Shown piece after piece: positions 1 through 17,828 of a DNA stretch of 36,365 nucleotides. The position numbers and the translations under genes were made by a program. Below the pieces are notes generated by a model. The model was not told the origin of the DNA. It searched no databases and worked only from the letters and a program-made list of their open reading frames with translations. Source of the DNA: Candidatus Binatia bacterium (GTDB lineage Bacteria > Desulfobacterota > Binatia > HRBIN30 > CADEER01). The stretch lies in assembly GCA_028282445.1 (NCBI GenBank), contig JANQHZ010000167.1:1-36365 (forward strand), in the 5' to 3' direction. Position 1 is the first letter of the stretch. Every line of letters begins with the position of its first letter.

Positions 1-1190
1 ACGCCGGGCCGGGCTTGGTGGACGGCCTTGACGGTGCAACTCACGCCGCGGTCAGTCCGGACAACCAATACATCTACGTAGCGGGCGAGATCGATGACGC
101 TGTGGCCGTGTTCGAGCTCCCAGACGACACTCCGCCGAGCGGCAGCTGCGAGCTGGACATTACCAGCTTCGTGGAGGCCAAGACGGATTCAGACCTCAAC
201 AAGGCCCGGTCGGTCGCACTCGATCCGAGTGGCGACAACGTTTACGTTGCATCAGCCAACGGGGATGCAATCGTCACATTCGATCGCAACTCATCAGACG
301 GCACGCTCACAATTGGCGATTCCGCAGTTGACGGGGTCGACGGCTTCACGTGCCTGAACGGCGCGACCTCGGTGGTCGTCTCGGCCGACGGAGAATGCTT
401 GTATGTCGCGGCGGAATCCGCCAACAAGCTTTGTGTCATCGACCGCGATACGAGCGACGGGTCGCTCTCTCAGAGCTCGGAGTGGGTAGACGCACAGAGC
501 GCCGACCAACAGAGCAACAACATTGTAGCGAACCTCAAAGGAGCGCGTTGGGTCACTATCAGTCCGGACGACGACCACATCTACGTCGCGGCACCAACAG
601 ATGACGCCGTGCTGGTCTTCGAGCGGGACGCAACAGGCTGCGACCTGACCTTCGTCGAAGACTGGCTCGACTCCGAGATCACCGGAGGGGGCCTCAACCA
701 GGTCAGCTCGATCGATGTCACGCCGGACGGTGGCCGAGTCTACGCCTCAGCCAAGCAGGACGATGCAGTCGTCGAGTTCCTGCGAGATCCCTCTACCGGC
801 GAGCTCACCTCCCCAGCCGTAGCCGTCAGCGGCACCGGACTCAACGGCGCCCTCGGGATATATGCGGAGGACCAGCGGCTCTACGTATCCGCCAGCATCA
901 ACGACTCGGTGACGACCTATGAAGTAAACAGCTGCTGTGGCGACGCAACCCTCCATCGAAATGAGGACTGTGACAATCCGTCAGCGTGTTGTGCATCCGA
1001 CTGCACGGTGGCACTAGATTCGGGATCACTCTGCGGTGACCTCAACGGCTGCACCGGCCCCGACACATGCGATGCGAACGGAGTGTGCTTGTCGGGTCCC
1101 TGCAACGTTCCCAACGCATGCACCACAAGCTGTGGAGGAACCGGGACCTGCGCGACGGACGGAACAACCTGCGGCTGCCAGCCGGACTAG
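1..1190 (+). CDS. 5'-partial beta-propeller repeat protein (lactonase/YVTN-type blades) with C-terminal cysteine-rich domain, probably secreted
   Basis: The reading frame is open to the window edge; the track start at 15 is only a TTG, so the gene probably continues upstream. There are six blade-like repeats: YIYVAGEIDDAVAVFE, NVYVASANGDAIVTFD, CLYVAAESANKLCVID, HIYVAAPTDDAVLVFE, RVYASAKQDDAVVEFL, RLYVSASINDSVTTYE. The last ~85 aa (nt 933-1187) contain 16 Cys (CCGD...CDNPSACC...CGD...), resembling Myxococcus-type or disintegrin-like Cys-rich repeats. Confidence 0.75.
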   Translation, partial: AGPGLVDGLDGATHAAVSPDNQYIYVAGEIDDAVAVFELPDDTPPSGSCELDITSFVEAKTDSDLNKARSVALDPSGDNVYVASANGDAIVTFDRNSSDGTLTIGDSAVDGVDGFTCLNGATSVVVSADGECLYVAAESANKLCVIDRDTSDGSLSQSSEWVDAQSADQQSNNIVANLKGARWVTISPDDDHIYVAAPTDDAVLVFERDATGCDLTFVEDWLDSEITGGGLNQVSSIDVTPDGGRVYASAKQDDAVVEFLRDPSTGELTSPAVAVSGTGLNGALGIYAEDQRLYVSASINDSVTTYEVNSCCGDATLHRNEDCDNPSACCASDCTVALDSGSLCGDLNGCTGPDTCDANGVCLSGPCNVPNACTTSCGGTGTCATDGTTCGCQPD

Positions 1191-3961: not shown

Positions 3962-4146
3962 CCGCGAGCGCGGTAAGCCACAGAGATCGGCGGATGCGGC
4001 AGCTGAAACTAACCTGCCGCCGCATCCGCTCACCTATTGATTGGCTAGCCTTGTATATCAATTAGATTCGTCGAACTTTCGCTTGCGATGTCAAGGCCAG
4101 TGTGTTTCGTCAAGACACTCACCGAAAACAGGGAGAGCAGATAAAG

Positions 4147-4968
4147 ATGGGTCCATACATTAGGAGTTTGCTTTCCAAGTTAGTGTTTGGGTTTTCCCTC
4201 GGCTGCGCTTTCTTACCCGAGACTTCGAGTGCCGAGAGCGCGGCTATCGTGATGAGCGACGTCTGTGAAGACCCAGCGGCCGTATTCGACCACAGGTGGG
4301 CAAGCGACACGGCGGGAGCCACCACGGTCTTTTACATGGCGGACAATGGGACCGTCTACAGAATCAGCGAAGGCAACGGCGCGTTGGGGAACTTCGAAGA
4401 CCTGTACGTATTCGCCCACGGCGCACCCGGCACCATCAACAACATGGGGTACGAGGCTTTCGCTCAACACCTAGAGAACGCGCACCCGGCGATACCGAAC
4501 AGCGTGTCCTTCGGCGTGTGCTACTCGGCGATCGGCCCGAATAGTCTACTGAAGCGCGTGAACGTTCAATACGGCGGATTGGTCAATCGCCTATCCGGTG
4601 GGGTTGTCGCTTGTGCACTCACCGGCAACGGCGACCGCCGCCTGGCGAATGCAGAGTATCGGATTCGCGTCGGGCATTCGGATGACGAACGATACAAGCG
4701 AATCGTCGACAACATTCACGCCAAGTGGGCTGAAAACTACCCGGGGACGGAGACCAGCTACGCGGACTACTGCCGCGCGTCCTTAAATCCATTCGATGCC
4801 GGGCGGTTGCGGGACTTTATGGAGACCGTTTTTGATGAGTTCTCAGTTGCCAATCCCGAACCGAATTCCACCGACTATCTCGAGCTCGTAGCATTGAATA
4901 TCGATGGCGAGCCTCTGACGGTTTGCGGCCAGGACCCGGCGGGTAGAGGGCGAGTCGACTGCCCGTAG
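4147..4968 (+). CDS. exported hypothetical protein
   Basis: The internal ATG at 4147 is preceded by GGGAGAGCAGATAAAG. The signal peptide is MGPYIRSLLSKLVFGFSLGCAFLPETSSAES. The motif LYVFAHGAPGTINNMG is not one I can place with confidence. The 5' end and upstream region are conspicuously AT-richer than their surroundings. Confidence 0.75.
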   Translation: MGPYIRSLLSKLVFGFSLGCAFLPETSSAESAAIVMSDVCEDPAAVFDHRWASDTAGATTVFYMADNGTVYRISEGNGALGNFEDLYVFAHGAPGTINNMGYEAFAQHLENAHPAIPNSVSFGVCYSAIGPNSLLKRVNVQYGGLVNRLSGGVVACALTGNGDRRLANAEYRIRVGHSDDERYKRIVDNIHAKWAENYPGTETSYADYCRASLNPFDAGRLRDFMETVFDEFSVANPEPNSTDYLELVALNIDGEPLTVCGQDPAGRGRVDCP

Positions 4969-5050: not shown

Positions 5051-6070
5051 GTGCTCCGTACCCCTCACGAATTGCTCGGACAGCTGCCTCGATTTGCTGT
5101 CGATGAGCAGCTTGGCTCTGTCGTGCGGAGCCTGTCGCTCATATCTGCGACGCCGGGGGTGGTCGTGAGTCTCGCCACCATCCTTTGGCTCGGCGTTCCG
5201 GTCTCCGGTCTCCAGATCACCGGCGGGCCGGTATACGAGCTACCAAAGGGTGGTTCGTGCCTCGTCACGGGAATCCCGGGGGCAGGTTCCGGTACGCACT
5301 ATGCGTGCTCGGGGGTTGACCTCGGCGCCTACACGCACGTGTACTTCGGGATCAAGAACGCGGCGTGCGACAAAGTCCATGGCAAGAAGTCGTGTCCAGC
5401 CAATCCGAATGGCAACAGTATGAACGGAAGCCCGTTTACGGCTGGGGGCGACGCGATCTTCACGATCGACTCCTTCGATCGAAACTCGATAACCTACCAG
5501 AGTAAGACCGGCATCGTGAACGAGCTCGCAAGTCCAAACGCGTCCGCGGTCACAAGCCACTTAACGTTGACGGTCACCGATGGGGCAGCGACAGTGGTCC
5601 CTACAAAAGGCACCCCGGCCGATACGGGGTGGGGCGACATCGGCTATCTCTTCAAAATCGACAGCGCGTCTTTCAGCGTCACCGTCACGATCGTCGCCAA
5701 TTCGCCCGACTACGTGGGACTCGCGGACTCGGCCGTATTCGATCCAACCCACACACCGGAGGGAACACAAGACTCGACCAGCGTCGATTTGGCATTTTAC
5801 TACTACCAAAGCGACCCAAGCTCCCTGGGAAAGTTTCCCGACGGTGATTCCGGCGCGAGCGCGTCCGCTACCGCGCTTCCAGCTCTGCGCAGCACTGGTG
5901 ACGGCCGTACGGACTCGCCACGTCTCGACGGAGCGGACGCAGATCGGATCGTACCGAGACCGTGGCAGGTTCTTACGCCTCGCGGCCGGAACTCGTCTCG
6001 CAAGGGCCGAGAACCGGTAACCCGCATAGAGCTCGGAGCCCGCGCCGGACGTCGGGTCGATGTCGACTAG
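5051..6070 (+). CDS. membrane-anchored or exported beta-rich hypothetical protein; first gene of the giant-protein operon
   Basis: GTG start with GGAAGGAG 6-7 nt upstream. A hydrophobic segment at aa ~33-55 (ATPGVVVSLATILWLGVPVSGL) suggests a signal anchor. A T/S/V-rich beta-like core follows, then an R/P/G/D-rich, apparently disordered C-terminal tail. The stop overlaps the start of the 3047-aa ORF by 11 nt. Confidence 0.7.
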   Translation: MLRTPHELLGQLPRFAVDEQLGSVVRSLSLISATPGVVVSLATILWLGVPVSGLQITGGPVYELPKGGSCLVTGIPGAGSGTHYACSGVDLGAYTHVYFGIKNAACDKVHGKKSCPANPNGNSMNGSPFTAGGDAIFTIDSFDRNSITYQSKTGIVNELASPNASAVTSHLTLTVTDGAATVVPTKGTPADTGWGDIGYLFKIDSASFSVTVTIVANSPDYVGLADSAVFDPTHTPEGTQDSTSVDLAFYYYQSDPSSLGKFPDGDSGASASATALPALRSTGDGRTDSPRLDGADADRIVPRPWQVLTPRGRNSSRKGREPVTRIELGARAGRRVDVD

Positions 6071-9000
6071 CGTCACGATCAATCGGTCGGATCTCGATCC
6101 GACGGTACTCGATCTGGGCCTGGTTACGGGACTGCTAACGGATGGTGGTGGCGGTGACGAAGTAGATCTTAACTCGGGGTGGTTCGACGATCCGTTTTCT
6201 TACCTCGAACGCATCCCGAATAGTCCCGAGTTCTTTCCGCTACTGGCAAGCCTATTGGGGTCCTTAGGAGGCGATGCACTCGGAACGGTCAAGCAGACCG
6301 CCGATCGCTCGTGGTATCCCCTGAACATCCCCGGCGAAGGGGCCAATGGACCGCCGACTGCTAGTGGGTTCTATCTCGTTACGAACAAAGTCCCGAGCAA
6401 CGGAAAGGGAAACGGAAACAGTACCGGTGTCATTGCCGGCTTGGGTGCAATCCGGACCTTCGTCGAGCAAGGCGTATCGATCACCCCTTACGCGTTGTTC
6501 CCCCTCGTAAAGATACCCTCGGAGGATGCTACACAGAAAGATGCTTCCTTCGTCCTCGGCCAGGAGCCGATCGAGATCGGAATCGACGTGTCGGCCGCAT
6601 CGGGGGCGTTCTCGTTCGGTGGGGGTAAGGGAGCCGTGGCAACTGCCTCGCTCGACGGGGACAAGGTTGGGACGTCGGTCAAGATCGATGCGCCCGGCTC
6701 CGGTTACAACGCTCAGACCGAGGTTTACTTCGTCGGCGGAGGGGGCTCGGGCGCATGCGGCAAGGTCTCGGTCGATGAAGGCGAGGTGACCGGTGTTCGG
6801 GTCACGTCTCAGGGGAGTGGCTATACTCGCGCGCCGGACGTCGTGTTTGTCGACGGTGTCTCCTTTGACGGCCTCAAGATCGACGTGACGATCCCTTTCG
6901 AAGGAAGCCCGCCCAAGATCGGATTCGACATCGTTCTCCTCAATCTAGCCGTACCCGGCGGCCCGCCTGCCAATCGTTCGTTGGTCGAGCTCATCGCCAA
7001 CGCGGAGCAGGAGGTCGAAGAATGGTTGAGGATCGTACTCTCAATTCTCGGGGCGCAGCTTGCGAAACAGAATTCGCAAGCCGGCGCGATGTTCGAGAAT
7101 GTGATGAGACTCCTCGGCATCGTGGGGGATGTCCCGCCGATTGATTGGAAGCGGCTCATCGAGGAAGCGAAGTCGGGCAATGGAGATCCGGCGCAGGTCT
7201 TTGTCGAGTGGCTTCGTGCCGTTGTCGGCTCGGATACAGCAGCCGAGTCATGGCTGGACGACTGCTACGCCCTACTGCACCCTGCCGCAGACACCTCTGA
7301 TGCGGTTTCCGGCTCCGGGACGCTGTCCGAACCATGGAAGATCTGCCTCTACGATCTCGCTGATCGAGCGAGCCTGTTCTTCACTCTGGCCGCTCACAAC
7401 ACCGGCAACACAAACAGCTCGAGTAAGTCGAAAGTACGCGCCGTTGCGCCGGATGAGCTGGCCGACGGCGCACCGAGTGGAACCCTTCAAGTCTATCCCG
7501 GACTGGAGATCCGCTCCGACGCGAAGACGATGGTCGCGAGCTACGTTTCCGCGAGCCTCGACTGCTCGCTGCAGTTCTTGCAGCTCGATCTGCCGGCTTC
7601 CGGGGAGGTCCCCGCCCCGGTCTCCTTTCCAGCATTCGACCTGATGCTCGCTTTCACCAATCCGAGTGCCGACGACCTTCCCCTCATACACTTCGGTACC
7701 GGTGCCGACGCGACGTTCGAGGTCGATTCGATCGAGGTAGGTTTCGGGCTCAGCAAGCTAAGGGGAGCACTTACGCCGAACCCCTGTATCCGCCTGGTCG
7801 GCGTCAAGACACCCTACGGCTCGTGGCCGGAGCTCAACCTCTCCGACTTCAACGCGAAGGCGGTGAAAGATGAGCTTGCGTCGATCCTGCAGAAAGAGAT
7901 TGAGAAACTGCTTGGGGTCGATTCGAACGACGGGACCGTTGATCCATCCGCCAACGCTTTCGCTCAGCATCTTGCCGCAGTCATCGGGGTGATCGCACCG
8001 CCCTCGTATCCCGGAGGCTCGGGCCCGTGGCCCCTTTCCGATGGAAAGATGCTGTTGTCCGCGGAAGAGCTGGGGTTGTTGGTCCACGAGCCGTTCGGCG
8101 CGGTGGGTGCATACTACTCCCGCTGCCTCGCGCCTCCTCAAGGGGGCGGCGTGTGGCAGTACATTCTCATCGAGCTTGCCCGATTGTTCGGATCCTCGTC
8201 CAGCAAGCTCGTCAACCCCGCGGCCGCTGGCAACGCAACTGATCCCTGGCGCGTGGTGCTCGTCGCCACGAGCTCGGGCGATCCTGAGGTCGTCGTCGAG
8301 GCGTGGCAGCCCGAGGGAACGACGCACGAGCTAATCTTGGCCTTTGCCGTCGACATTCCCCTCCCGCTTCCACCGGAAGTAGCCTCGGACGCCGAGGCGA
8401 CTTTGTCGTTCGTGTTGGAGTTATTGCACGTCACGTTGCCCGACGGATCCGGTAAGGGGCCGGTCTCGGCCGATTGGCTTCGCGGCGCCGGCGCCGAGCT
8501 CGTAGTGAGCGGGCCCGGCGGGGCTTCGCTGACGCTCCCGGATCTCGCGGGCGTTCAGATTTCGATCGCCGACGTCAAGCTCTATGCAGGTTGGCAAAAG
8601 TCCGGGGAGCTCGGTTGGGAAGCGACGATCGATTCGTTGACGTTGTCGGCCGACGGCCACGAGGTCGGGAAGGTGCCCCACATCTCCTTCGGGAGCACCA
8701 CGAGCAATTGGCAGAGCGATCTGGAGAAACTTGCGCCGCTGGCATTGAACGTCCTTGGGGTGTTGGCGCTCGAGCACGGAGGGCGCCCGGGCGTAGCGGC
8801 GAGCGCCTTGCTTGGCGCACTTCCCAACGCGCCTTCCCTCATCGATGGGAGCGACGATTCGCCCTTCATGCTTCCGAAGGGGCTAAAGCTCCCGACGACG
8901 TGGCCGGCCCTCGAGCTCTCGCATCCGACGCAACCGTGGCTCGACCTGCAGGCGCAGTTACAAGGCCTCCTTGGGGATGGCGCCGCGATGGAAGCCGCGA

Positions 9001-12000
9001 TGCGGCTGATAGGCTGGGCGATCACCGGGCAAGTTCCCACCGCCCCGGCTACGCAACCGACCGGCGATCGCAATGATCCCTGGTCGGTGCTTCTACCGGA
9101 TGTCTGGGACGTCTCCCTTCTCGCCTGGAGCGAGGACCAAAAGCAGATGGGGCTCGGCCTCGAGCGCGTAATGGCATCGGAGGTTTCCGGCGACATCGAG
9201 GTTGCCGTCGAGATGCGTCTGGACGTCCCCGCCTTTCCGCTGCCCGGAGGTTCTTTCGGCAATGTTGCGCCGGCGATCTCCGTTTCGGTCGACCTCCGTA
9301 ACCCCAGCCAAGGCAAAGCGCTACTCGATCTACCGAGCGGGCTCCGCATCGAGCGCGCGCGAATCGGTGCCTCCGCCCAACTCAGTACGAGCGGAGTAAG
9401 CTACGCTCCGACGGTTGATCTCTACGGAGCGCGCCTAACGAGCCAGCACTCTCCTGCGACCGTTCACCTCTCACCGGTTCCGGGAACGCCCAAGTTTACC
9501 TGCGAACAGGGGATGCAGGTCATCGGGACGTTGCTAGCTGCTCTGATGCAGGAGGTGTCACACGCGGCAACTTCGTTGCCGAAGCTCCAGGCTGCCCTAG
9601 GGGTCCTCGAGGTGTTTTCGCTCGTCGATGACAAGTCGACGAGCTCGGAGTCGCTCGACGAAGCTGCTAACTACGGGATCAACCTCGGGGCCTGGACCGG
9701 CATGCTGGCGAATCCGGGCAATTTCTTCGGCGGCCGAGCGACGGCTATTCTCGAAGACCCGTCCGAGTCCAAGGCGCTCTACGACGCACTTGCCGTGCTT
9801 CTAGGGGTCGGCTCTTTCAAACTGCCGAAGCAGGTCGAGGTGCTGGAGGACGTTCTCGTTGCGCTCGAGCTGCTCGAGCCGACTCCCGGGGGTTGGTTCT
9901 CTGTGCCGGTGTCGAGCTGGCTCAGTCTCGTAGACAACCCGCGGCGCTACCTCGAGAATGAAGTTTCCGCCATCTTTTCGGATTCGGACGGTCGCCTCAA
10001 GCAACTTCTTACCCAACTCGGCGCCCTTGCCGGGGTTGAAAGCGCCTATCTCTCGGTTGACGCCACCGGTACCGTCGTCACACTCACCCTTCCTGACCTC
10101 GCGATTGGCGCGGAGCTCTTCGCTTACGGGAGCTTGGGCCTCGACCTGAAATCCTTCGAGTTCGAGGTCGAAGTTGCCGCAGCCGCCCGCTGGAAAAATG
10201 TCGTCGGCGGCCAGGAGAGCGATTCGGTCGGGGCTGCGTTGCTGTTGCAGTACAAGCCTCAGGTCGGCGCCGACTTCTCGCTGGCCGGATCTCCAACGCT
10301 GTCCCTCGCCGCGGCACCGGGGCCGCAGCCGGCGGCATTCGAGCCGCTGCCGCTGTACCCGCCCCCCGACCCGATCGGTCCCTACTTGGCGCGCCTGGGA
10401 ACGGAGATCCCGATTACGGTTCTCTCGGCGGTAGCCGTGCAGGCGCTCAATCGTTTCGTCATGCCTGCGACGGCCGATCCGAGCCCGGCCAGGCAGTTGG
10501 CCGGCAACATCTTCAAAGCCTTTGGTCTCGCGTCGCAGGTCGCACCGGACAAGCCCGTGCAGGTCAAGCCTCTGGCGGCGGCGTTCACCCACCCGATCGA
10601 TTGGCTGCTGAGTCCGGACGTGCTGGGCGACGGCAAGGGCGGAATCGATCTGACCAATCTGGGCAAGATTCTCTACGCCATTCCGGGCGCCGGAATCACC
10701 GGGCCGGGCAATATCGAGCTCAAAGCGTTTTCATTTCAGTCTCAAAACAATGGCCTTCAGCTGATCAATCTGCCCTACGGCGTTTCGTTCAATGTGTACT
10801 CCGACGAGACCGACGGCGTCGGCATCGAAACTACGATCGACGAATCAATCCAGTCCGGCGCCGTCGAGGTCGCGATTACGCCTGGGATCTCTTTTGGGCA
10901 CGGGGCCGGGGTGCATGTCGACGGTACGATCAGCCTCAGCTTCGCCCTCGGTGCGAGTGCGAACGGCAACGGCAACCAAGTCTCGATCGAGGCCGGCTAC
11001 AACACAAAGGTCGCGCAAGGCTTCGACCTCACGTTGAGCGGGCAGATCGCCGATGGGAGTACTGTCGACAAATTTGGGCCCTACGACCTCGTACCGTTTA
11101 CGGGACTCAACCAATTCTTGAACGGTGCCGGTGAGGCGGTGCTCAACCTGGTCGGCCAGAAGCTGTTTGACGAGCTCGCCAGCTACGAGGGTGCGCACCC
11201 GGACGTCGACTGGGTTAAGTTTGTCAAGACGATCCAGTCCTCTACGGGTCTGTCGTCATTCTCGAAGCTCGAGACCTTCATTCAGAACCTCATCGCGGAC
11301 CCACTCGCGCCGTTCGAATCAGCGCAGGCGCCGTCCACAATGCGAACATTACAGAAGCTGCTGACCGGCGCACCGCTCGGCTTCGACGCGTCGACCTTCC
11401 CGGTCGACCACGGCGTCATTAGCTACAAACTGCCGATCGGCGGCACCGACGCCGCGATCACGGTCTCGGTCGGCAATCAATCGATGAACGGGACGGATAA
11501 CGTATTCGGGCTCTGGATCGTTCCGACTCTAGAGGTCGAGTGGCTCGAGCTCAGCTTAGCCAGCGACGGCGCGCAAAGCGGAATCGGAGTCGTCCTGCCA
11601 TCACCCCCCGCAACCGCGGCGTCTCCACCCACCGTTGAGTATGCGCTGCTACCCAAGGCTGCCGTCGATCTCAGTCGCTTCAGCGTGCCGGCTCTACCCG
11701 GCGCTCCCGTCCTACAGCTCACCCTTGACGGCCAGGTGCTGCCTACGCCAACGGTGGGGCAGTTCTCGCTTCAGGTCTATCCCGCCGGAGAAGGAAGTAC
11801 ACCGCAGACGCTGGTCGTCGACCTTCTCCCCACGCCACGACTGGCGTACGGAAATGGGCAGTCGGCAGCCAGCGTTGGCCCCTGGCTCGAACAGCTCGCG
11901 TTCGACTTGCTGATCCCGCTACTCGCAGACATCGCGCTCAGTCTCGCGGCTGTTCGCTCCTTCCTGAACAAAGATATCGTGGCGGGCGACGACAAGAGCT

Positions 12001-15000
12001 GTTTGGGGAGCATCCTCAGTACATGGGGGCTACTCGATCAGACCGGGAGCGGCGACAGTGCGGTGTACGCTCTTGCCGACCTACGGCAAGCTTTTCCCGT
12101 CAGTAGCCTGTCTGACGTCGAGGGGATCGTTTTTCGTCTACTCGCCGCACTCGCCGACGCGCTCGCCGGGCATCCGCTCATCCCGGGTGTCGACATCGAG
12201 ATCGCAGAAAGGCAAAGCCCGGCAAACAAAGATCATACCTTCTACGGCCTCGAGCTGAGCCTCCCGGACATCGTCGTCTCGAAGAAGCCCGGCTCGCCGA
12301 AGTTGGTGCTACAGCTCGGCAAGTGGCTCGACGGCGAGACGGATGACAACTGGATCCATCAGTCCGATCCTGACTTCCCGAAAGAGGGAACGTCGCCAGG
12401 CGTCGCATTTTACTTGTTGCTCGTGGACGAGTCGGGGAGCAAGAGAAGCTACTCGTTCGGCCCGGGGGTCGAGCTGATCAGCGTTGGCCTCGACTTCGAT
12501 GGCGCCGATGCTCAGCATCCCCTCGTCGACGTGAAGGGCTTCTCGGTTGGGTCTATCCAGCCGAGAGTCTACGGGAGCTTCTTCGATGACGGCGGCCAGC
12601 TCGAGTGGGCGCTCGGTGGCGCTCTCCTTTGCGACCAGATTGGTGTTCCTCTCGGGCCAGGCTTCGGCAACGCGAGCGGCGACAACGCCGTTGCCCAGAA
12701 CATCCTGGCGTCCGGCAAGACGAATCAGCACGGCAAGGATCAGGGAGTGAATCCAGCGTTCTCAGCCTCTTTTGCCTACGTCTATGCTGACGGTGGACAG
12801 ACGTCGACGGTTCCGGTGTTCCAGTTCTACGACCCGCAAGGAAATCCAACGGACAAGGTGTGGATTCCGATCCAGCGCGCCTTCGGCCCGATTCAATGCA
12901 GCCAGCTCGGTTTGGGATGGGAGGCGCAGCCGAAAATCGTGGACATCGGATTCGACGGCTCGGTGGAGCTGGCCGGGCTCGCCGTTGAGCTCGATCAGTT
13001 GATGATCGGAATACCGATCCGAACGCCGACCGATTTCGGAGCCTACCGGTTGGGCCTCCAAGGGCTCGAAATTACCTATCAAGGCGGGTCGGTCGATGTG
13101 AGTGCCGGCTTTCTGCACTTGGATTCCGGCTACTACGGTGAGGCGCGTATCCAAGTAGAGGACTTTTCGATCTCCGGACTTGGAGGTTACGACGTCCTTG
13201 CCCACCATCCGTCGCTCTTCATTTACGCTGCAGTGGAAGCGCCCCTGGGGGATCCGACGGGCACCGGAGCCTTCTTCGTGACCGGGGTTGCCGCGGGTTT
13301 CGGGTACAACCGCGGACTCAACCTACCCGATCCCGAGAACGTGGCAACCTATCCCTTCGTCGCCGCGGTGGAGAGCCCGGGCGACTACCCGCCGCCTCCT
13401 GACAACCCGTCAGGATACCAGGCGGCGATGAGTGAGCTTCTCACCAAGCTGGCCTCGGCGGTACCACCCCAGCTCGGCGAGAATTGGGTCGCGGCGGGCG
13501 TCAAGTGGACGTCCTTTGACCTCATCGATTCGTTTGCTCTACTGACGGTTGCATTCGGTACCGACTTCGAGATCGGACTACTCGGAGTCTCGACCATCGA
13601 GCTCCCCAAGTCGCTCAAGGATGACAACGACAAGGACAAGCTCAGTCCGATTATATTCTCGCAGCTCGAGATCGATGTAACCTATACGGAGAAGTCCGGG
13701 ATTCTCAAAGCGGCCGCCGTCATCAATCCCGCTTCGTATGTCCTCGATCCGGACTGCCACTTGCAGGGCGGGTTCGCCTTCTACGCTTGGTTCAAGGATC
13801 AGCTTCCGGATCCGGCCAAGGATGGGGAGGCCGGCCAGTTCGTCATTACGCTAGGCGGCTACCATCCGGACTTCGTGGCGCCGTTTCGCCCGCCATACTA
13901 CCCGAACGAGCCGCGGGTCGGCTTCAACTGGGCGGTAGGCGGCGGCGTCGACATCAAAGGAGGACTGTATTTTGCGCTGACGCCGGCCGCCGTAATGGCC
14001 GGAGGCAGCCTGGACCTGACCTTCCAGTCCGGTGCATTGAGGGCGTGGTTCGACGCGTACGCGGACTTCCTCATCATGTGGAAGCCGTTTCACTACGAAG
14101 CCGATATCGGAGTCAGTATCGGCGCCTCGTACCGCGTCGACGCGTTGTTCATTCATCATACTTTCACGATCGAGCTTGGCGCCAGCCTGGCCCTGTGGGG
14201 GCCGAAGTTCGGAGGTAAGGCGCACGTCAGTTGGTTCATCATTTCCTTCACGATTCATTTCGGCGACCAGAGCAGTCGTAACGCGCGCCCCCCGCTCGAC
14301 TGGCAACAGTTCGCCGAATCGTTTCTTCCCGCGCACAAGAATGGCGGCGGGCAATCGGACTTGCTCTCGAGCGGGACCAATACGCTGGTTGCGACCAACG
14401 ATGATGCCCCCTCGGTGATCACCGCCACCGTATCCAAGGGACTCATGTCGACCCCGAAGGTTGACGGTAAGCCCGTGTGGGTCATCAACCCGCAGGACTT
14501 CACCTTGGTTACGAACGCGATCATCCCCTCGACCGGTGTTTCGATAGCGGGCCACAACGTCACGCCCAGCTTCGCCCCCCGTACCGATTTCGGTGTGCGC
14601 CCCATGCAGCAGTTTGTTGGCGTGGAGTCCGGACACGAGATTTTGCTGTCGAAAGAGAACGCGCAAGGGCAATACGAGGAAAAGGACTGGGATTGGGTCA
14701 GCACGCACATCGTTCCGACGGTTACGCGGAAGAGCGCCCCGATGGCTCTGTGGGCGAACACCGCGGCGTCTGACAAGACCTTCGATGATGAGCAAACGAT
14801 CCCGGACACGATGGGAGGCTTGTGCCTCGAGCCGAAGCCGGTTAACGCAGATGATTACAACCCGGTCGGCCCGTTTCCGAAGTCCCGACTTGCCTGGGAT
14901 ACGATCGACCCGTCCGCTGAGTTTGCGTGGGGAAAGCTCGAACCCTCTACGTCGCCGCAGTATCCGCCGCCCGGCGTCGCCGCAATCGACGAGCTAATGG

Positions 15001-15203
15001 CGACGGTTGCAGCGGAGTCGATCGTTGCGGGGCGGGCCGGTATTCTCGAGGCGTTGGTCGCCAATGGGGTCGCAGTGTCCACCGATGCCGACTTGGCGGT
15101 AATGGCGGCGACAGCTGATGAGTTTCTGCTGGCGTCTCCGTTGCTCGTCTCGCTCGGAAGCAAGCCCAACTTCAAGCCGACGCCCGGGAAGGAGGAGGGC
15201 TGA
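6060..15203 (+). CDS. giant (3047 aa) protein of unknown function; C-terminal ~490 aa tentatively DUF6603-like
   Basis: An uninterrupted 9.1-kb ORF with coding-like codon bias throughout. The region nt ~12800-14280 carries motifs I associate with DUF6603: FFVTGVAAGFGYNRGL (GFGYNR at 13296-13313), ITLGGYHPDF (13854-13874), LYFALTPAAVMAGG and FHYEADIGVSIGA. There is no signal peptide, Walker A, HExxH, RHS/YD or RTX repeat. Confidence 0.95.
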   Translation: MSTSVTINRSDLDPTVLDLGLVTGLLTDGGGGDEVDLNSGWFDDPFSYLERIPNSPEFFPLLASLLGSLGGDALGTVKQTADRSWYPLNIPGEGANGPPTASGFYLVTNKVPSNGKGNGNSTGVIAGLGAIRTFVEQGVSITPYALFPLVKIPSEDATQKDASFVLGQEPIEIGIDVSAASGAFSFGGGKGAVATASLDGDKVGTSVKIDAPGSGYNAQTEVYFVGGGGSGACGKVSVDEGEVTGVRVTSQGSGYTRAPDVVFVDGVSFDGLKIDVTIPFEGSPPKIGFDIVLLNLAVPGGPPANRSLVELIANAEQEVEEWLRIVLSILGAQLAKQNSQAGAMFENVMRLLGIVGDVPPIDWKRLIEEAKSGNGDPAQVFVEWLRAVVGSDTAAESWLDDCYALLHPAADTSDAVSGSGTLSEPWKICLYDLADRASLFFTLAAHNTGNTNSSSKSKVRAVAPDELADGAPSGTLQVYPGLEIRSDAKTMVASYVSASLDCSLQFLQLDLPASGEVPAPVSFPAFDLMLAFTNPSADDLPLIHFGTGADATFEVDSIEVGFGLSKLRGALTPNPCIRLVGVKTPYGSWPELNLSDFNAKAVKDELASILQKEIEKLLGVDSNDGTVDPSANAFAQHLAAVIGVIAPPSYPGGSGPWPLSDGKMLLSAEELGLLVHEPFGAVGAYYSRCLAPPQGGGVWQYILIELARLFGSSSSKLVNPAAAGNATDPWRVVLVATSSGDPEVVVEAWQPEGTTHELILAFAVDIPLPLPPEVASDAEATLSFVLELLHVTLPDGSGKGPVSADWLRGAGAELVVSGPGGASLTLPDLAGVQISIADVKLYAGWQKSGELGWEATIDSLTLSADGHEVGKVPHISFGSTTSNWQSDLEKLAPLALNVLGVLALEHGGRPGVAASALLGALPNAPSLIDGSDDSPFMLPKGLKLPTTWPALELSHPTQPWLDLQAQLQGLLGDGAAMEAAMRLIGWAITGQVPTAPATQPTGDRNDPWSVLLPDVWDVSLLAWSEDQKQMGLGLERVMASEVSGDIEVAVEMRLDVPAFPLPGGSFGNVAPAISVSVDLRNPSQGKALLDLPSGLRIERARIGASAQLSTSGVSYAPTVDLYGARLTSQHSPATVHLSPVPGTPKFTCEQGMQVIGTLLAALMQEVSHAATSLPKLQAALGVLEVFSLVDDKSTSSESLDEAANYGINLGAWTGMLANPGNFFGGRATAILEDPSESKALYDALAVLLGVGSFKLPKQVEVLEDVLVALELLEPTPGGWFSVPVSSWLSLVDNPRRYLENEVSAIFSDSDGRLKQLLTQLGALAGVESAYLSVDATGTVVTLTLPDLAIGAELFAYGSLGLDLKSFEFEVEVAAAARWKNVVGGQESDSVGAALLLQYKPQVGADFSLAGSPTLSLAAAPGPQPAAFEPLPLYPPPDPIGPYLARLGTEIPITVLSAVAVQALNRFVMPATADPSPARQLAGNIFKAFGLASQVAPDKPVQVKPLAAAFTHPIDWLLSPDVLGDGKGGIDLTNLGKILYAIPGAGITGPGNIELKAFSFQSQNNGLQLINLPYGVSFNVYSDETDGVGIETTIDESIQSGAVEVAITPGISFGHGAGVHVDGTISLSFALGASANGNGNQVSIEAGYNTKVAQGFDLTLSGQIADGSTVDKFGPYDLVPFTGLNQFLNGAGEAVLNLVGQKLFDELASYEGAHPDVDWVKFVKTIQSSTGLSSFSKLETFIQNLIADPLAPFESAQAPSTMRTLQKLLTGAPLGFDASTFPVDHGVISYKLPIGGTDAAITVSVGNQSMNGTDNVFGLWIVPTLEVEWLELSLASDGAQSGIGVVLPSPPATAASPPTVEYALLPKAAVDLSRFSVPALPGAPVLQLTLDGQVLPTPTVGQFSLQVYPAGEGSTPQTLVVDLLPTPRLAYGNGQSAASVGPWLEQLAFDLLIPLLADIALSLAAVRSFLNKDIVAGDDKSCLGSILSTWGLLDQTGSGDSAVYALADLRQAFPVSSLSDVEGIVFRLLAALADALAGHPLIPGVDIEIAERQSPANKDHTFYGLELSLPDIVVSKKPGSPKLVLQLGKWLDGETDDNWIHQSDPDFPKEGTSPGVAFYLLLVDESGSKRSYSFGPGVELISVGLDFDGADAQHPLVDVKGFSVGSIQPRVYGSFFDDGGQLEWALGGALLCDQIGVPLGPGFGNASGDNAVAQNILASGKTNQHGKDQGVNPAFSASFAYVYADGGQTSTVPVFQFYDPQGNPTDKVWIPIQRAFGPIQCSQLGLGWEAQPKIVDIGFDGSVELAGLAVELDQLMIGIPIRTPTDFGAYRLGLQGLEITYQGGSVDVSAGFLHLDSGYYGEARIQVEDFSISGLGGYDVLAHHPSLFIYAAVEAPLGDPTGTGAFFVTGVAAGFGYNRGLNLPDPENVATYPFVAAVESPGDYPPPPDNPSGYQAAMSELLTKLASAVPPQLGENWVAAGVKWTSFDLIDSFALLTVAFGTDFEIGLLGVSTIELPKSLKDDNDKDKLSPIIFSQLEIDVTYTEKSGILKAAAVINPASYVLDPDCHLQGGFAFYAWFKDQLPDPAKDGEAGQFVITLGGYHPDFVAPFRPPYYPNEPRVGFNWAVGGGVDIKGGLYFALTPAAVMAGGSLDLTFQSGALRAWFDAYADFLIMWKPFHYEADIGVSIGASYRVDALFIHHTFTIELGASLALWGPKFGGKAHVSWFIISFTIHFGDQSSRNARPPLDWQQFAESFLPAHKNGGGQSDLLSSGTNTLVATNDDAPSVITATVSKGLMSTPKVDGKPVWVINPQDFTLVTNAIIPSTGVSIAGHNVTPSFAPRTDFGVRPMQQFVGVESGHEILLSKENAQGQYEEKDWDWVSTHIVPTVTRKSAPMALWANTAASDKTFDDEQTIPDTMGGLCLEPKPVNADDYNPVGPFPKSRLAWDTIDPSAEFAWGKLEPSTSPQYPPPGVAAIDELMATVAAESIVAGRAGILEALVANGVAVSTDADLAVMAATADEFLLASPLLVSLGSKPNFKPTPGKEEG
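6612..6854 (+). repeat. two tandem ~38-aa glycine-rich modules (protein-level repeat) in the 3047-aa ORF
   Basis: GGGKGAVATASLDGDKVGTSVKIDAPGSGYNAQTEVYF followed by VGGGGSGACGKVSVDEGEVTGVRVTSQGSGYTRAPDVVF. The same module type recurs at 18125-18334. Confidence 0.7.
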
Positions 15204-16792
15204 TGGTCGCGAAGAAGCGCACCGCCGGCACGGCGTCCGGCAGCACGGTCGAGTTCATCGACGGATGGCCACCGCCACTCGAGGCCGGCAACTACAAGAT
15301 CCAGGTCGATCAGAAGGTCTCCGTCGCTACCGAGTCGCTTTCCAGTGAGTTCAAGTTCAGCGTGGGCGCGCCGCGTTTCACGCTCGATCCGGCGCTGATT
15401 CACTCCTTTTTTCCGCCGGCCGCGCATCAAGCCAACTTTTCTGAGTACCTGCCTCAGGTCATCTTTACTCGTAAGACTCTTCCGTGGGAGCGAACGATCG
15501 ACGGAAGCGCGTTGACGCGCCCACTCGACGGTTCGGGAGCCGGACCGCCTCTGATGCCGCCGTGGATGGGAGTGCTGTTATTCGACGAGGAGGATTCGCT
15601 GAACGGTGCGTCAGGGATTCCCAAGGTGGAATCGAAGACGGTCGGCGACTTGATCTCGCGTGCCCACGGCGGCTCGCGGCCCAAGGGTGTCTTCGGTCCG
15701 GAGATCGAGGTCGAGAACCTCGAGGCCGGCCAGCACCTTACCGACCAGTGCATGATCATTGAAGTGGGCTCCGAGCTCTTTCAGAGCATCGCGCCTTCGC
15801 TGGACGACCTTCCCTATCTGGCGCACTCGCGGAAGGTCGATCCAGCCCTGAAGACGTCTCCCGGCACTATCAATGACGACGGGTGGGTGTCGGTCGTGAT
15901 CGGCAACCGTTTTCCCAGACCGGGTAAACCGGGCGGCAAGGCGGCGAAGAACACGGCGTTCCTTGTTTCACTCGAAGGCTTCTCGGAATATCTGAACGGC
16001 GGCAAGCCGATCACCGAGAAGACGACCTATCTCGCGTGCTTGGCCAGTTGGACATTCAACGACATTGGTACCAACGCGAGTTTCGATCAACTCATGACTG
16101 GGCTCAGGAAGGAGCTCGAGACTCAAGAGTACGACGGCAAGCTGAGCGGTAGGTTGGGCTTGCTGCCGACCCAGCCCCCGGCGACCACCGGGCCGGAGCA
16201 TGCCGTGCAGCAGGGCTTGCTGCAGGGATTCACCGCGATCAACCACGTCACGCGACAGGGAGAGAAGACCGTCTCCTGGAATAGAGGCCCGTTGGTCCCG
16301 CTCCAACTCGCGCCGCCAGATCAGCCGCCTCTCTACAACTCTTCCGACGGCGCGCTACGCTACGATCCAGCCTCAGGGCTCTTCGACGTCTCTTACGCCG
16401 CGGCTTGGCAACTCGGCCGCCTGCTCGGTCTCAACAACAAGAAGTTCTCGACCGCTCTACTGAATTGGCGGCGCGCAACTCACCAGTCGACGGCGGCTGC
16501 GTTGACACGCCACCTCTGCCATCGGCAGCTCAGTGGGCTACTTGATTCAGACGGCGACATACTCGACGAACAGTACCTGAAGAACGGCCTGCTCGGCTTC
16601 CTTGCGACGCGAATGCTAGAAACGCTCGCACCCGCCGACGCATCGAAGCCAGGTGTGCTTGGCAAGCTGGGGGACCCGTCGGGGGTGCGGGAGCGTGGCC
16701 TCGACGATGATCGACTTCGCGACATCGTAGAGGGCAGCGATGATCCAGCGCGCGACCTGCTCGAATGGTTGCAACAACGGAAACGGGACTAG
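15203..16792 (+). CDS. hypothetical protein (529 aa), operon member
   Basis: The ATG shares its A with the TGA of the upstream giant ORF (TGATG), and a strong AAGGAGGAG lies upstream. Sharply defined motif blocks are present, e.g. FTRKTLPWERT and VSYAAAWQLGRLLGL (16388-16432). No recognisable catalytic motif. Confidence 0.9.
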   Translation: MVAKKRTAGTASGSTVEFIDGWPPPLEAGNYKIQVDQKVSVATESLSSEFKFSVGAPRFTLDPALIHSFFPPAAHQANFSEYLPQVIFTRKTLPWERTIDGSALTRPLDGSGAGPPLMPPWMGVLLFDEEDSLNGASGIPKVESKTVGDLISRAHGGSRPKGVFGPEIEVENLEAGQHLTDQCMIIEVGSELFQSIAPSLDDLPYLAHSRKVDPALKTSPGTINDDGWVSVVIGNRFPRPGKPGGKAAKNTAFLVSLEGFSEYLNGGKPITEKTTYLACLASWTFNDIGTNASFDQLMTGLRKELETQEYDGKLSGRLGLLPTQPPATTGPEHAVQQGLLQGFTAINHVTRQGEKTVSWNRGPLVPLQLAPPDQPPLYNSSDGALRYDPASGLFDVSYAAAWQLGRLLGLNNKKFSTALLNWRRATHQSTAAALTRHLCHRQLSGLLDSDGDILDEQYLKNGLLGFLATRMLETLAPADASKPGVLGKLGDPSGVRERGLDDDRLRDIVEGSDDPARDLLEWLQQRKRD

Positions 16793-16796
16793 AGCG

Positions 16797-17828
16797 ATGG
16801 CGAGTTGGCAGCCGACGAAGAACCACCTTCCTGGCCTGAAGCGCTTCCTGTCGGAGCCCGAGCACATTCGCGGGTTGCTGAACGAGGATCAGCCCGTTCC
16901 CGACGACATTGCCGGTTGGTTGGCCCGGTTGCGGCTCCTCTACGGCGTTCCCTTCAACTACCTCGTGCCCGACGAGAAGATGTTGCCACAGGAATCAATC
17001 CGGTTCTTCTCTCTGGATCCGAATTGGTTGGAGGCGTTGCTGGACGGCGCTCTGAGTATTGGTCGCAACACCTCCAAGGATGCTGCGCACGACGAGGCAG
17101 TCAAAGAGATCGTGCACGAAGCCGCCGCTAGGGCGGTAGGTGAAATCCGGCCGAGATTCGGTCAGGAGCCCCCGGCGACCGATTCCTCGACAGTGTATTC
17201 CGGGTTTCTACTTCGATCCGCTGTTGTGTCCGGCTGGCCGGGTCTCGAAGTGGAGGCTTACGCCGCCAATTCGCCGGAAAGCCTGCCGATCTGCCGTTTC
17301 GAGCGTCTGTCTCGCGACGTCATGCTTTGCATCTTTAGCGGGTTGTTCGAGAAACTGTACCTCCACGAACCATCCGAGGGCATCCAGTTCGGGGCTTTGT
17401 ACGAACCTACGAATCCGGCCGACACTCGATACCAGATGGACCAACTCCGCGGTCTCGGGGTTCCAGGCGGGGGGATCGCCTCTAAGCCCGCAGGTGAACC
17501 GGTCGCTCAGAAGAATCCGACGGTAACGGTTCCCCTGCGCGCGACTCAGGGAAACGGGAACATGCGCGTGATTGAGGCGGCAAAATTCGCCGAAGGAACG
17601 ACCAAGGCATCTGGCGGGCTGCCTTATTTTCTCGGTCCCGGTGCCCCGAGCCCCCTGACGATCTCGCAGTTCTCGGTTGAGATGGTGAAGAGCCCACAAC
17701 GTCAAGAATTCGTCGACACGACGACCGCCGCCGGGGTACCCACCCTGCACCCACCAAACCGAAAGCTACCGTCGGTCAAGCGGGCTCGAGCCAAGAATCA
17801 GCGTGACCTTTTCGGGAAGGGTGATTGA
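16797..17828 (+). CDS. hypothetical protein (343 aa), operon member
   Basis: The ATG (MASWQPTK...) lies 4 nt after the previous stop; the track's earlier start at 16740 would overlap the upstream gene by 53 nt. There is a long motif block LRLLYGVPFNYLVPDEKMLPQESIRFFSLDPNWLEALLDGALSIG (16929-17063). Confidence 0.85.
   Translation: MASWQPTKNHLPGLKRFLSEPEHIRGLLNEDQPVPDDIAGWLARLRLLYGVPFNYLVPDEKMLPQESIRFFSLDPNWLEALLDGALSIGRNTSKDAAHDEAVKEIVHEAAARAVGEIRPRFGQEPPATDSSTVYSGFLLRSAVVSGWPGLEVEAYAANSPESLPICRFERLSRDVMLCIFSGLFEKLYLHEPSEGIQFGALYEPTNPADTRYQMDQLRGLGVPGGGIASKPAGEPVAQKNPTVTVPLRATQGNGNMRVIEAAKFAEGTTKASGGLPYFLGPGAPSPLTISQFSVEMVKSPQRQEFVDTTTAAGVPTLHPPNRKLPSVKRARAKNQRDLFGKGD

Follow-up and report, generated by a model that had tools for sequence, protein, structure and literature searches.

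Among described systems, three come closest to the locus analysed here. The Tc (ABC) toxins of Photorhabdus, Yersinia and Serratia are built from large soluble subunits that carry no signal peptides, and they are released with the help of a holin and an endolysin. The cassette around the DUF6603 domain is like them in logic and not by homology: it is an operon with very large, soluble, beta-rich subunits (about 3000, 1300 and 800 aa) lacking signal peptides, and one DUF6603 locus carries holin and lysin genes. However, RHS/YD, SpvB, FG-GAP, VRP1/TcdA and TcA/TcB domains are absent from its proteins A to E in Pfam and NCBIfam, and no fold similarity to Tc components appears in the two cassette models tested. 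Tailocins, extracellular contractile injection systems and type VI secretion baseplates offer a second likeness, through a presumed cytoplasmic assembly without signal peptides, Ig-like modules and variable tail-collar or binding genes at the 3' end; but the families of sheath, tube, spike, baseplate-J/TssF/TssG, gp6/gp7/gp25-like proteins and AAA+ ATPase are not in the DUF6603 cassette, which is moreover absent from phage and viral collections and whose core proteins have no structural match. Outer-membrane beta-barrels and the beta-belt of ApoB100, finally, share with the DUF6603 domain a long antiparallel meander of amphipathic beta-hairpins, and they head a list of non-significant Foldseek matches. 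Unlike the barrels, the DUF6603 domain is internal to a 3047-aa protein, has no signal peptide and also occurs in monoderms, and its model superposes on known closed barrels with a TM-score of 0.27 at best.

DUF6603 itself has thousands of members and neither function, structure nor literature. The domain name and its accession, PF20248, are absent from the searchable literature, in which we found no paper bearing on function, and NCBI annotation labels the proteins 'DUF6603 domain-containing protein'. Our main finding is that the domain does not occur alone: in the window (the whole stretch of 36,365 nucleotides analysed) and in 80 genomes, it is the signature of a cassette of 10 to 18 kb. 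The features of the window on which the argument rests are the following.

15..1190, + strand: YVTN/lactonase-type beta-propeller protein with a Cys-rich C-terminus, truncated at the window start (Pfam Lactonase, E-value 4.6e-30)
5051..6070, + strand: upstream, locus-specific ORF of 339 aa with a hydrophobic N-terminal segment (gene call on the independent contig L001)
6060..15203, + strand: gene A, DUF6603-family giant protein of 3047 aa (uninterrupted ORF, full-length homologues)
6606..6857, + strand: Ig-like module of about 80 aa near the N-terminus of A, aa 183-266, motif GGGGSGA...GSGY (PHROG)
7077..9689, + strand: three tandem repeats of about 290 aa each, approximately aa 340-1210 of A (hhalign slices)
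12870..14507, + strand: DUF6603 (PF20248) domain, aa 2271-2816 of A (hmmscan, AlphaFold2 model, motifs in alignments)
14508..15200, + strand: conserved C-terminal tail of A, aa 2817-3047 (BLASTP, conserved columns)
15203..16792, + strand: gene B, 529 aa, orphan family (homologues in other loci, junction read)
16797..17828, + strand: gene C, 343 aa from the ATG at 16797 (the mechanical ORF runs from 16740), orphan family
17825..22573, + strand: gene D, 1582 aa, orphan family, likely start at the ATG at 17828
18107..18337, + strand: Ig-like module of D, aa 95-171 (PHROG, sequence reading)
22619..23761, + strand: gene E, 380 aa, likely start at the ATG at 22625; fifth and more variable member of the cassette

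Full-length homologues of the gene A protein measure 2800 to 3440 aa and are 25 to 54% identical to it, the closest relative standing at 54%. The original prediction had proposed, from nine peptide blocks in a beta-rich stretch of this ORF, that the stretch resembled DUF6603, a bacterial domain of about 500 aa without assigned function. All nine blocks (9/9) were located where they had been placed, from PVFQFYDPQGNP (aa 2252-2263, window 12813-12848) to WFIISFTIHFGDQSS (aa 2725-2739, window 14232-14276), and the proposed family was the right one: Pfam hmmscan matches PF20248 with an E-value of 1.8e-135 and a score of 452.8 bits, where the gathering cut-off is 27, in a single stretch covering profile positions 1-498 of 502. 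No characterised family competes for the assignment, DUF6603 being the sole Pfam match in the protein and the NCBIfam and PADLOC searches being empty. Judged by this score the match is far above chance level, and the 3047-aa ORF is, on its sequence, a true family member. The window protein is a new member of a catalogued family that has no assigned function, and for which 3558 representatives of 50%-identity clusters are found at an E-value of at most 1e-3. The motifs FFVTG.AAGFGYNR, LTGGFAF, TLGGYHP and MAGG are kept in alignments of 20 and of 121 sequences, the latter containing 18 invariant and about 70 near-invariant columns, and the window protein carries all the near-invariant family motifs (FFVTG..AGFGYNR, LTGGFAF, TLGGYHP, ALTP..MAGG and W.PF.Y).

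The limits of the domain had been predicted less well. The proposed interval, about aa 2250-2740, overlaps the actual one, aa 2271-2816, which extends about 230 nt past the predicted end at 14280. Nor does the description 'C-terminal' hold, since the domain is followed by a conserved tail of about 230 aa and is therefore not the C-terminus of A. BLASTP alignments with most other A proteins, in all three size classes, extend through this tail to about aa 3010-3040, and conserved alignment columns continue into it past the domain. The description 'beta-rich', for its part, is borne out by an AlphaFold2 model of aa 2250-2830 (mean pLDDT 87.9, pTM 0.81), which predicts a meander of about 30 long beta-strands, nearly all-beta, with one helical insert.

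The remainder of A is more variable in size. Short family members, of about 1300 aa, align to the window protein at aa 1 to about 60 and at about 1950-3030 only, and lack a segment of about 1700 aa (approximately aa 260-1950) within which the three tandem repeats fall. These repeats match one another, slice against slice, with hhalign probabilities of 97-98% and E-values of 1e-11 to 1e-13, at offsets of about 290 and 580 aa. The window protein belongs to the giant size class and has extra Ig-like inserts. Its PHROG matches are limited to the Ig-like module (phrog_708, a baseplate wedge subunit, E-value 8e-11, and phrog_701, a virion structural protein), which is 37% identical to the Ig-like module of D; homology between genes A and D as such was rejected, with an hhalign probability of 0.1%.

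The genes that follow are tightly packed. The ATG of B overlaps the A stop codon by 1 nt, with GGAGGAGG just 5' of the B start; C starts 4 nt past the B stop; and the likely ATG of D overlaps the C stop by 1 nt. Genes A to E (6060-23761) form a translationally coupled operon of which A is the first gene. The 343-aa product of C is a sequence on record (P0121). Proteins of the D family have about 1250-1370 aa elsewhere, and the window D is larger by an Ig-like module and three inserts of about 65 aa, as read from the sequence. PHROG matches in D lie at about aa 76-212, mostly at 95-171, with a weak one at 628-658, and the consensus of the D family does not contain the Ig-like module of about 80 aa. 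E consists of an N-terminal module of beta-sandwich type and an Ig-like C-terminus; it is matched by the profile of the downstream-neighbour family (E-value 1.2e-19), and its aa 289-379 match phrog_2155, a virion structural protein (E-value 8e-5). In some members of the E family the C-terminus is instead a YVTN propeller, matching a Methanosarcina surface-layer protein (PDB 1L0Q, E-value 1e-37), or fn3.

B, C and D have no match in Pfam, NCBIfam, PADLOC or PDB. Pfam searches with 18 B homologues and 22 D homologues, and a PDB search with the D family, also returned nothing, and the profile of C had no match among PDB sequences below an E-value of 0.8. PDB sequence searches with a 65-aa insert of D and with the Ig-like module gave nothing significant. 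Profiles of all five proteins, A being represented both by its domain and by its full N-terminal region, were compared with PDB sequences, and only the YVTN propeller of some E proteins was matched. Overall, Pfam, NCBIfam, PHROG and PADLOC scans of the window cassette proteins yielded DUF6603, the Ig-like module, the phrog_2155 match of E and little else, and no catalytic, pore-forming, needle or ATPase domain is recognisable in A to D. A crude hydropathy scan and inspection of the window's five proteins, with a few N-termini of E-family homologues examined by eye, revealed no obvious N-terminal signal peptide in A to E, no convincing transmembrane helix and no lipobox.

The suggestion that this operon would show which genes accompany an orphan family, and in what order, is confirmed by tabulation of flanking genes, which gives a conserved, co-linear set of partners. 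The survey covered 80 genome loci from more than 10 bacterial phyla: Acidobacteriota, Pseudomonadota, Myxococcota, Bacteroidota, Cyanobacteria, Chloroflexota, Bacillota, Actinomycetota, Planctomycetota, Verrucomicrobiota, Gemmatimonadota and Nitrospirota. Behind the DUF6603 protein A come B, C, D and usually relatives of E, in an order that is nearly always kept; the window's own B to E stand in this canonical order. B and C are each present in 65 of the 66 loci with at least 3 kb of sequence downstream, and D, where there is room of at least 7 kb, in 60 of 61, in 55 of them downstream; of 55 loci with enough room for it, 40 have an E-family gene directly 3' of D. The same core is found in monoderms (Paenibacillus, Streptomyces, Herpetosiphon) and in diderms, with a patchy distribution across phyla and several copies in some genomes. 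In 38 of 65 loci B and C are fused, and in 27 they are separate, the fusions spanning both full profiles end to end, and the size of A tracks this state: a giant A accompanies separate B and C in 18 of 19 cases, and a short A accompanies the fusion in 30 of 32. As B and C form a single polypeptide in about half of the genomes, these two at least act together, and the tight coupling and near-obligate co-occurrence of the four genes argue that A to D make up one multi-subunit assembly.

The genes around this core are diverse. The 5051..6070 ORF, which overlaps the start of A by 11 nt and has no match in Pfam, NCBIfam, PHROG or PADLOC, stands where about 12 other loci have a gene for a class-3 lipase, and may be an accessory or cargo gene. 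As conserved partners, the window's upstream genes at 2643-3425, 4102-4968 and 5051-6070 were rejected, having no homologues in other loci. The propeller part of 15..1190 is matched by the E-family profile (E-value 1e-15) and is similar to the C-terminal propeller of many E proteins; its membership of the cassette is uncertain. Across the survey, Lipase_3 occurs in 12 of 136 upstream ORFs, on the same strand as A and at a median distance of 29 nt; lipases are found at only about 15% of loci and are missing from the window. Trypsin-like proteases account for 3 to 5 upstream ORFs. Downstream, the Collar domain is found in 9 of 79 ORFs and Kelch in 3, and in further genomes the genes behind D include Kelch, Collar and cadherin-like ones. 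Single genomes add other neighbours: in Paenibacillus tarimensis, Phage_holin_6_1 and an Rv2525c/GH25-like gene come directly after E; in Corallococcus and Janthinobacterium, an ACP-like gene, ketosynthases, a gene of the Asp/Arg-hydroxylase family and KR/DH genes do so; and in Nitrospira a patatin gene lies about 5.6 kb downstream. The window and P. chitinolyticus show no lysis cassette, and scanning the remaining loci, many of which end soon after D, did not reveal one either. Searches of the window for Rfam families and tRNAs gave no hits.

Searches by fold brought no closer relative. Against PDB, the best weak Foldseek matches of the DUF6603 model were the ApoB100 beta-belt, FadL and outer-membrane barrels (E-values 3e-3 to 1e-2), with no hit at or below 1e-3 and TM-scores of at most 0.27, values which indicate that there is no real fold match. 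Two unnamed entries of BFVD were matched with E-values of 6e-7 and 7.5e-6; as their TM-scores are 0.14-0.17 despite the low E-values, both were discounted as a resemblance between strings of beta-meander. A high-confidence AlphaFold model of a B-C fusion had no fold relative in PDB by Foldseek, and no solved structure was matched by the DUF6603 family in PDB sequence and fold searches.

What could such an assembly do? Tentatively, and with distinctly less than even confidence, we propose a complex that, once assembled in the cytoplasm, works at the surface of other cells, A to D forming the machine and E with the 3' neighbours its recognition part. Assembly of A to E in the cytoplasm is suggested by the lack of obvious signal peptides in the window's five proteins. 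In the conserved machine, the DUF6603 domain would supply a large amphipathic beta-sheet surface; targets would be recognised by E and the variable 3' neighbours, with their YVTN/Kelch propellers, fn3, Ig-like, cadherin-like and phage tail-collar domains; and class-3 lipases or trypsin-like proteases encoded alongside would be candidates for the payload. Lysis is a conceivable route of release, as holin and lysin genes come directly after the cassette at one Paenibacillus locus; this pair, however, is found in one genome only, and a second Paenibacillus locus is without it. Also counting against cell targeting, A to D lack recognisable catalytic, pore-forming, needle or ATPase domains, neither toxins nor injection machines match the folds of the two models searched, and an extracellular role is not proven by beta-propellers and Ig-like domains, which also act as intracellular sensors.

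It is indeed as sensors that these modules would serve if the cassette were an anti-phage or intracellular conflict system, in which a cytoplasmic A-D complex would detect invader proteins and a lipase or patatin would kill the infected cell through its membrane. The patchy spread over many phyla with multiple copies in some genomes, the lack of export signals in A to E, the phospholipase-type neighbours (Lipase_3 and the Nitrospira patatin) and a serine recombinase that adjoins one Paenibacillus locus all fit this explanation, which we nevertheless consider quite improbable: nine window proteins (cassette and flanking) gave 0 hits in PADLOC-DB v2 at an E-value of at most 0.01, of the domains known from defence effectors or sensor scaffolds (NTPase, nuclease, TIR, SIR2 and others) none is present in A to E, no restriction-modification, toxin-antitoxin, CRISPR-Cas or integrase family is among the recurrent neighbours, and a cassette of 10 to 18 kb would be unusually expensive for defence. 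Less improbable, but still unlikely, is an apparatus for the producer's own lipids or envelope, whose amphipathic DUF6603 sheet would be a binder or carrier of lipid, or else build a surface lattice, while lipases and ACP, ketosynthase and hydroxylase enzymes make or remodel lipid. The nature of the top Foldseek matches, the recurrence of lipid enzymes nearby and the likeness of the E-family propeller to an archaeal surface-layer protein point this way, and the ACP-ketosynthase-hydroxylase cluster after the cassette in two genomes suggests lipid chemistry rather than cell targeting. Yet the TM-scores are too low to sustain the fold resemblance, signal peptides, lipoboxes or transmembrane helices that would place the proteins in the envelope are missing, the same core exists with or without an outer membrane, and most loci have no lipid genes near them.

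Descent from a phage structural module, as a remnant or in domesticated form (tailocin-like, or like a baseplate with fibres), would account for the baseplate-wedge and virion-protein PHROG matches in A, D and E, for the tail-collar genes that recur beside the cassette and for the holin and lysin at one locus. We hold it to be highly improbable. DUF6603 relatives number 0 in the 50,697 phage genomes of INPHARED and 0 in the 2.9 million viral contigs of IMG/VR; the PHROG matches of A and D come down essentially to one inserted module, the one missing from the D-family consensus; and sheath, tube, capsid, terminase and baseplate-J are recognisable neither in the window cassette nor among recurrent neighbours, although one Paenibacillus plasmid does have baseplate-V/VgrG-like genes, about 9-13 kb upstream of the cassette. 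With no PDB fold match for its model, nothing ties B-C to baseplate proteins. Returning to the complex that would act on other cells, its widest formulation is a rather doubtful one: a new class of large machine, assembled in the cytoplasm and released onto other cells, with folds that have no solved relatives and no relation to phage tails, Tc toxins or known secretion systems, which would attach to other cells by exchangeable modules (propeller, Ig-like and collar), deliver enzymes that degrade lipid or assist such enzymes, and have spread by horizontal transfer across more than 10 phyla.

Whichever reading applies, the analysis turns an orphan domain into a defined unit that is experimentally tractable, as compact cassettes exist in culturable Paenibacillus, Streptomyces, Janthinobacterium, Corallococcus and Herpetosiphon. 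It also brings in the partners B, C and D, which have so far stood outside Pfam, and for whose confident models no solved structure offers a match. If the cassette does encode a new cell-targeting or lipid-handling machine, the large apparatuses of bacteria would gain a further kind; otherwise annotators still have a coherent system to name, described by the B-C fusion, the catalogue of accessory genes and the size classes of A.

Protein A is encoded by an unbroken open reading frame (ORF) of 3047 codons (window 6060-15203, + strand), and the nine peptide blocks behind the original prediction of a DUF6603 domain all lie within it, from aa 2252 (window 12813) to aa 2739 (window 14276). A Pfam search of the whole protein with hmmscan found a single family, PF20248 (DUF6603, a ~500-aa domain without assigned function), with E=1.8e-135 and 452.8 bits for a gathering cut-off of 27 bits; the match is one stretch, aa 2271-2816, spanning profile positions 1-498 of 502. 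NCBIfam and PADLOC gave no match for A. These results confirm what was observed as well as the family tentatively assigned, and A is a member of the DUF6603 family. The domain had been placed at 12800-14280, at the C-terminus: its location stands, but it ends ~230 nt further on, at 14507, and is followed by a conserved tail of ~230 aa. The assignment itself is routine, since the family is already known from Pfam and genome annotations, and A is a further member of this catalogued DUF, 54% identical to its closest relative among 1.84 billion cluster representatives searched with phmmer.

Features of protein A
12870-14507, + strand: DUF6603 domain (Pfam hmmscan, aa 2271-2816)
7077-9689, + strand: three tandem ~290-aa repeats (aa ~340-1210; hhalign probability 97-98%)
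6606-6857, + strand: ~80-aa Ig-like module (GGGGSGA...GSGY; aa 183-266; PHROG match)

To characterize the domain, aa 2250-2830 of A were aligned with 120 database relatives (~38-49% identity), in all of which PF20248 is the only recorded Pfam domain. The AlphaFold2 model of this segment (mean pLDDT 87.9, pTM 0.81) is almost wholly beta, as anticipated, with ~30 strands of 3-19 residues (most 7-19) in consecutive hairpins and one helical insert. Foldseek gave no PDB match at E<=1e-3, the best weak ones being the ApoB100 beta-belt, FadL, porins, TonB-dependent receptors and SlpA (TM-scores of at most 0.27), while BFVD yielded two unnamed matches with low E-values and TM-scores of only 0.14-0.17. 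A 121-sequence profile found no PDB sequence either, and the predicted fold is one without a solved relative. Invariant residues are mostly glycine, proline and aromatic (motifs FFVTG..AGFGYNR, LTGGFAF, TLGGYHP and MAGG), with no evident catalytic signature among them.

The exhaustive phmmer search retrieved 3558 DUF6603 relatives at E<=1e-3 and 2646 at E<=1e-30, and when one genome per species was scanned by pattern, at least 539 encoding stretches turned up, from which 80 loci were retained for neighbor analysis. These belong to Acidobacteriota, Alpha-, Beta-, Gamma- and Deltaproteobacteria (including Myxococcota), Bacteroidota, Cyanobacteria, Chloroflexota, Bacillota, Actinomycetota, Planctomycetota, Verrucomicrobiota and Gemmatimonadota; Nitrospirota were added by a separate look-up, outside the 80 loci. 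The same core is present in monoderm and diderm bacteria. A proteins fall into three size classes: giants of ~2800-3440 aa, including that of the window; proteins of ~1250-1400 aa, which match the window protein over its first ~60 aa and over aa ~1950-3030; and proteins of ~1450-1800 aa, which have only aa ~2268-3030 in common with it. The ~290-aa repeats, each with a G.GT..DPW motif, lie inside the segment that only giants have.

The original prediction that the operon would supply partners and gene order for this orphan family was borne out when window proteins were compared by BLASTP with six-frame ORFs of the 80 loci, which revealed a co-linear cassette.

Cassette genes downstream of A
15203-16792, + strand: B, 529 aa; in 65 of the 66 loci whose downstream sequence spans 3 kb or more
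16797-17828, + strand: C, 343 aa; in 65 of the 66 loci whose downstream sequence spans 3 kb or more
17825-22573, + strand: D, 1582 aa; in 60 of the 61 loci offering 7 kb of room or more (on the downstream side in 55, on the upstream side in 5)
22619-23761, + strand: E, 380 aa; immediately 3' of D in 40 of 55 loci with room

The window shows translational coupling of these genes: the stop of A and the start of B share 1 nt, preceded by GGAGGAGG, B and C are separated by 4 nt, the stop of C shares 1 nt with the ATG of D, and ~50 nt separate D from E. The same order was recovered from independent gene calls in Corallococcus coralloides, Janthinobacterium sp. RA13, Nitrospira sp. MA-1, Streptomyces roseirectus and three Paenibacillus species, including a P. 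polymyxa plasmid, where the partner genes carry no annotation beyond 'hypothetical protein'. A opens a conserved, coupled A-B-C-D(-E) cassette. B and C are joined into a single ORF in 38 loci and are separate ORFs in 27. Fused proteins, ~120 of which (750-800 aa) were collected, span the B and C profiles in full, arranged head to tail. The fusions show that B and C act together. The fusion state follows the size of A, with separate B and C in 18 of 19 giants and fused genes in 30 of 32 short A. E is more divergent; its two neighbor clusters are mutually homologous (hhalign probability 99.7%), and their profile matches the window E with E=1.2e-19.

The partners are orphans as well. No Pfam, NCBIfam or PADLOC match was found for B, C and D of the window, no significant Pfam match in 18 B and 22 D homologs, and no recorded Pfam domain in any C relative; no PDB sequence was hit by profiles built from B, C, D or the whole of A. 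P0241, a 773-aa B-C fusion 96% identical to a Gimesia protein, was modeled with 135 sequences (pLDDT 90.3, pTM 0.83) as two alpha/beta domains joined by a helical bundle, for which Foldseek found no PDB match (best E=0.033, TM <0.1). The core is thus without characterized relatives by sequence and, for two of its parts, by fold. Homology between A and D was considered and rejected, the two being mutually unrelated. Within both, the only link to known proteins is the Ig-like module, which matches PHROG baseplate-wedge and virion-structural families with E down to 2e-13.

Inserted modules of D
18107-18337, + strand: ~80-aa Ig-like module (GGGGSGA...GSGY; aa 95-171; PHROG match)
18869-19060, 19280-19471 and 19676-19864, + strand: three ~65-aa inserts sharing the pattern sFTv...FP.g..i.v.gS..nDGsYTv.s.sY..p..TivVd..iPd

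The A and D copies of the Ig-like module are 37% identical, and it looks as if the module was acquired twice, or copied between the two genes. In D it sits at a loop that is short in the D-family consensus, from which the module is absent, so it is a lineage-specific decoration outside the core. The ~65-aa inserts account for most of the extra length of D relative to its ~1300-aa homologs; they were not reported by BLAST self-comparison, and a PDB sequence search gave no significant match.

Variable genes around the core encode binding modules. At their C-termini, 7 of 38 E-family members have a YVTN/lactonase-type propeller, matching PDB 1L0Q (a Methanosarcina surface-layer protein) with E=1e-37, and fn3 is also found at E-family C-termini; downstream ORFs carry a phage tail-collar domain (9 of 79) or a Kelch propeller (3 of 79), and Kelch, Collar and cadherin-like/Big_9 genes lie 3' of D in further genomes. 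Enzymes acting on lipids are recurrent too. Lipase_3 is encoded by 12 of 136 upstream ORFs, usually directly 5' of A and in the same orientation, with examples in Bacteroidota, Verrucomicrobiota, Acidobacteriota, Gammaproteobacteria and Paenibacillus, and a patatin gene lies near the Nitrospira cassette. Directly 3' of E, on the same strand, C. coralloides (locus L084, 16176-19578) and Janthinobacterium sp. RA13 (locus L088, 16143-20386) have genes for an ACP-like small protein, one or two ketosynthases, an Asp/Arg-hydroxylase-family protein, and dehydratases or ketoreductases, which in two such distant genomes suggests an acyl-chain or lipid product tied to the cassette. In Paenibacillus tarimensis (CP166298; locus L085, 17837-18881), Phage_holin_6_1 and Rv2525c/GH25-like genes immediately follow E, a pair that did not turn up in P. 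chitinolyticus, on the P. polymyxa plasmid or in other scanned loci. That plasmid (NZ_CP133769; locus L083, 1-6008) also bears, ~7-13 kb upstream of its cassette, a cluster of toxin-delivery type, with two 'baseplate assembly protein V' (VgrG-like) genes and DUF4280 (PAAR-like), pentapeptide-repeat, GH-E nuclease and ankyrin genes.

Other genes of the window
15-1190, + strand: YVTN/lactonase-type propeller protein, truncated by the window edge, with a Cys-rich tail
2643-3425, + strand: orphan ORF with a signal-peptide-like N-terminus
4102-4968, + strand: orphan ORF with a possible lipoprotein signal (FSLGC)
5051-6070, + strand: 339-aa ORF with a hydrophobic N-terminal segment, overlapping the A start by 11 nt
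25623-27671: Cys-rich 682-aa protein with an N-terminal hydrophobic segment
27593-28693: isochorismatase-family ORF (domain at aa 158-357 only)

The propeller of the 15-1190 protein matches the C-terminal portion of many E-family members, so this protein could be an accessory that has become detached from the cassette, which lies 5 kb away. Three window genes 5' of A have no counterparts in the other loci (BLASTP, 80 loci). The 2643-3425 and 4102-4968 ORFs have no Pfam, NCBIfam, PHROG or PADLOC match and are not kept beside other DUF6603 genes; the 5051-6070 ORF has neither a homolog in other loci nor a family match, and its last ~80 residues resemble low-complexity translation, so its true end is uncertain. 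The 25623-27671 protein likewise has no match in the four collections and none in other loci. In the isochorismatase-family ORF, the Arg/Pro-rich N-terminal ~150 aa are probably non-coding, so that the real start is likely internal, at or just past the Met near aa 116. The window sequence occurs in one other record, a 14-kb contig of sequencing run SRR20820736.

Our tentative reading is that A to D would form a single large complex, built in the cytoplasm and active at the surface of other cells, for which E and the accessory proteins could be exchangeable recognition modules, and lipases or proteases possible payloads. Such a system would parallel Tc toxins and tailocins in logic, without homology to them. 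A lipid or envelope apparatus of the producer, to which the weak ApoB- and FadL-like matches of the DUF6603 model and the lipid genes near the cassette point, seems unlikely: export signals are absent (a hydropathy scan and inspection found no N-terminal signal peptide and no convincing transmembrane helix in A to E of the window), and the cassette is indifferent to envelope type. We give somewhat less credence still to an intracellular defense or conflict system, against which stand the lack of PADLOC matches and known effector domains and the ordinary neighborhoods; defense and mobile-element genes are not among the recurrent neighbors. A phage-derived module is very improbable, and the cassette was not found in 50,697 phage genomes or in IMG/VR. 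The remaining probability falls to something else.

No paper on the cassette or its orphan families was found in the library searched. The value of the finding lies in context, that is, in a widespread 10-18 kb cassette of orphan families. The cassette encodes a large system, either ancient or highly mobile and, within the tests made, without structural precedent, which is now sufficiently defined for study.
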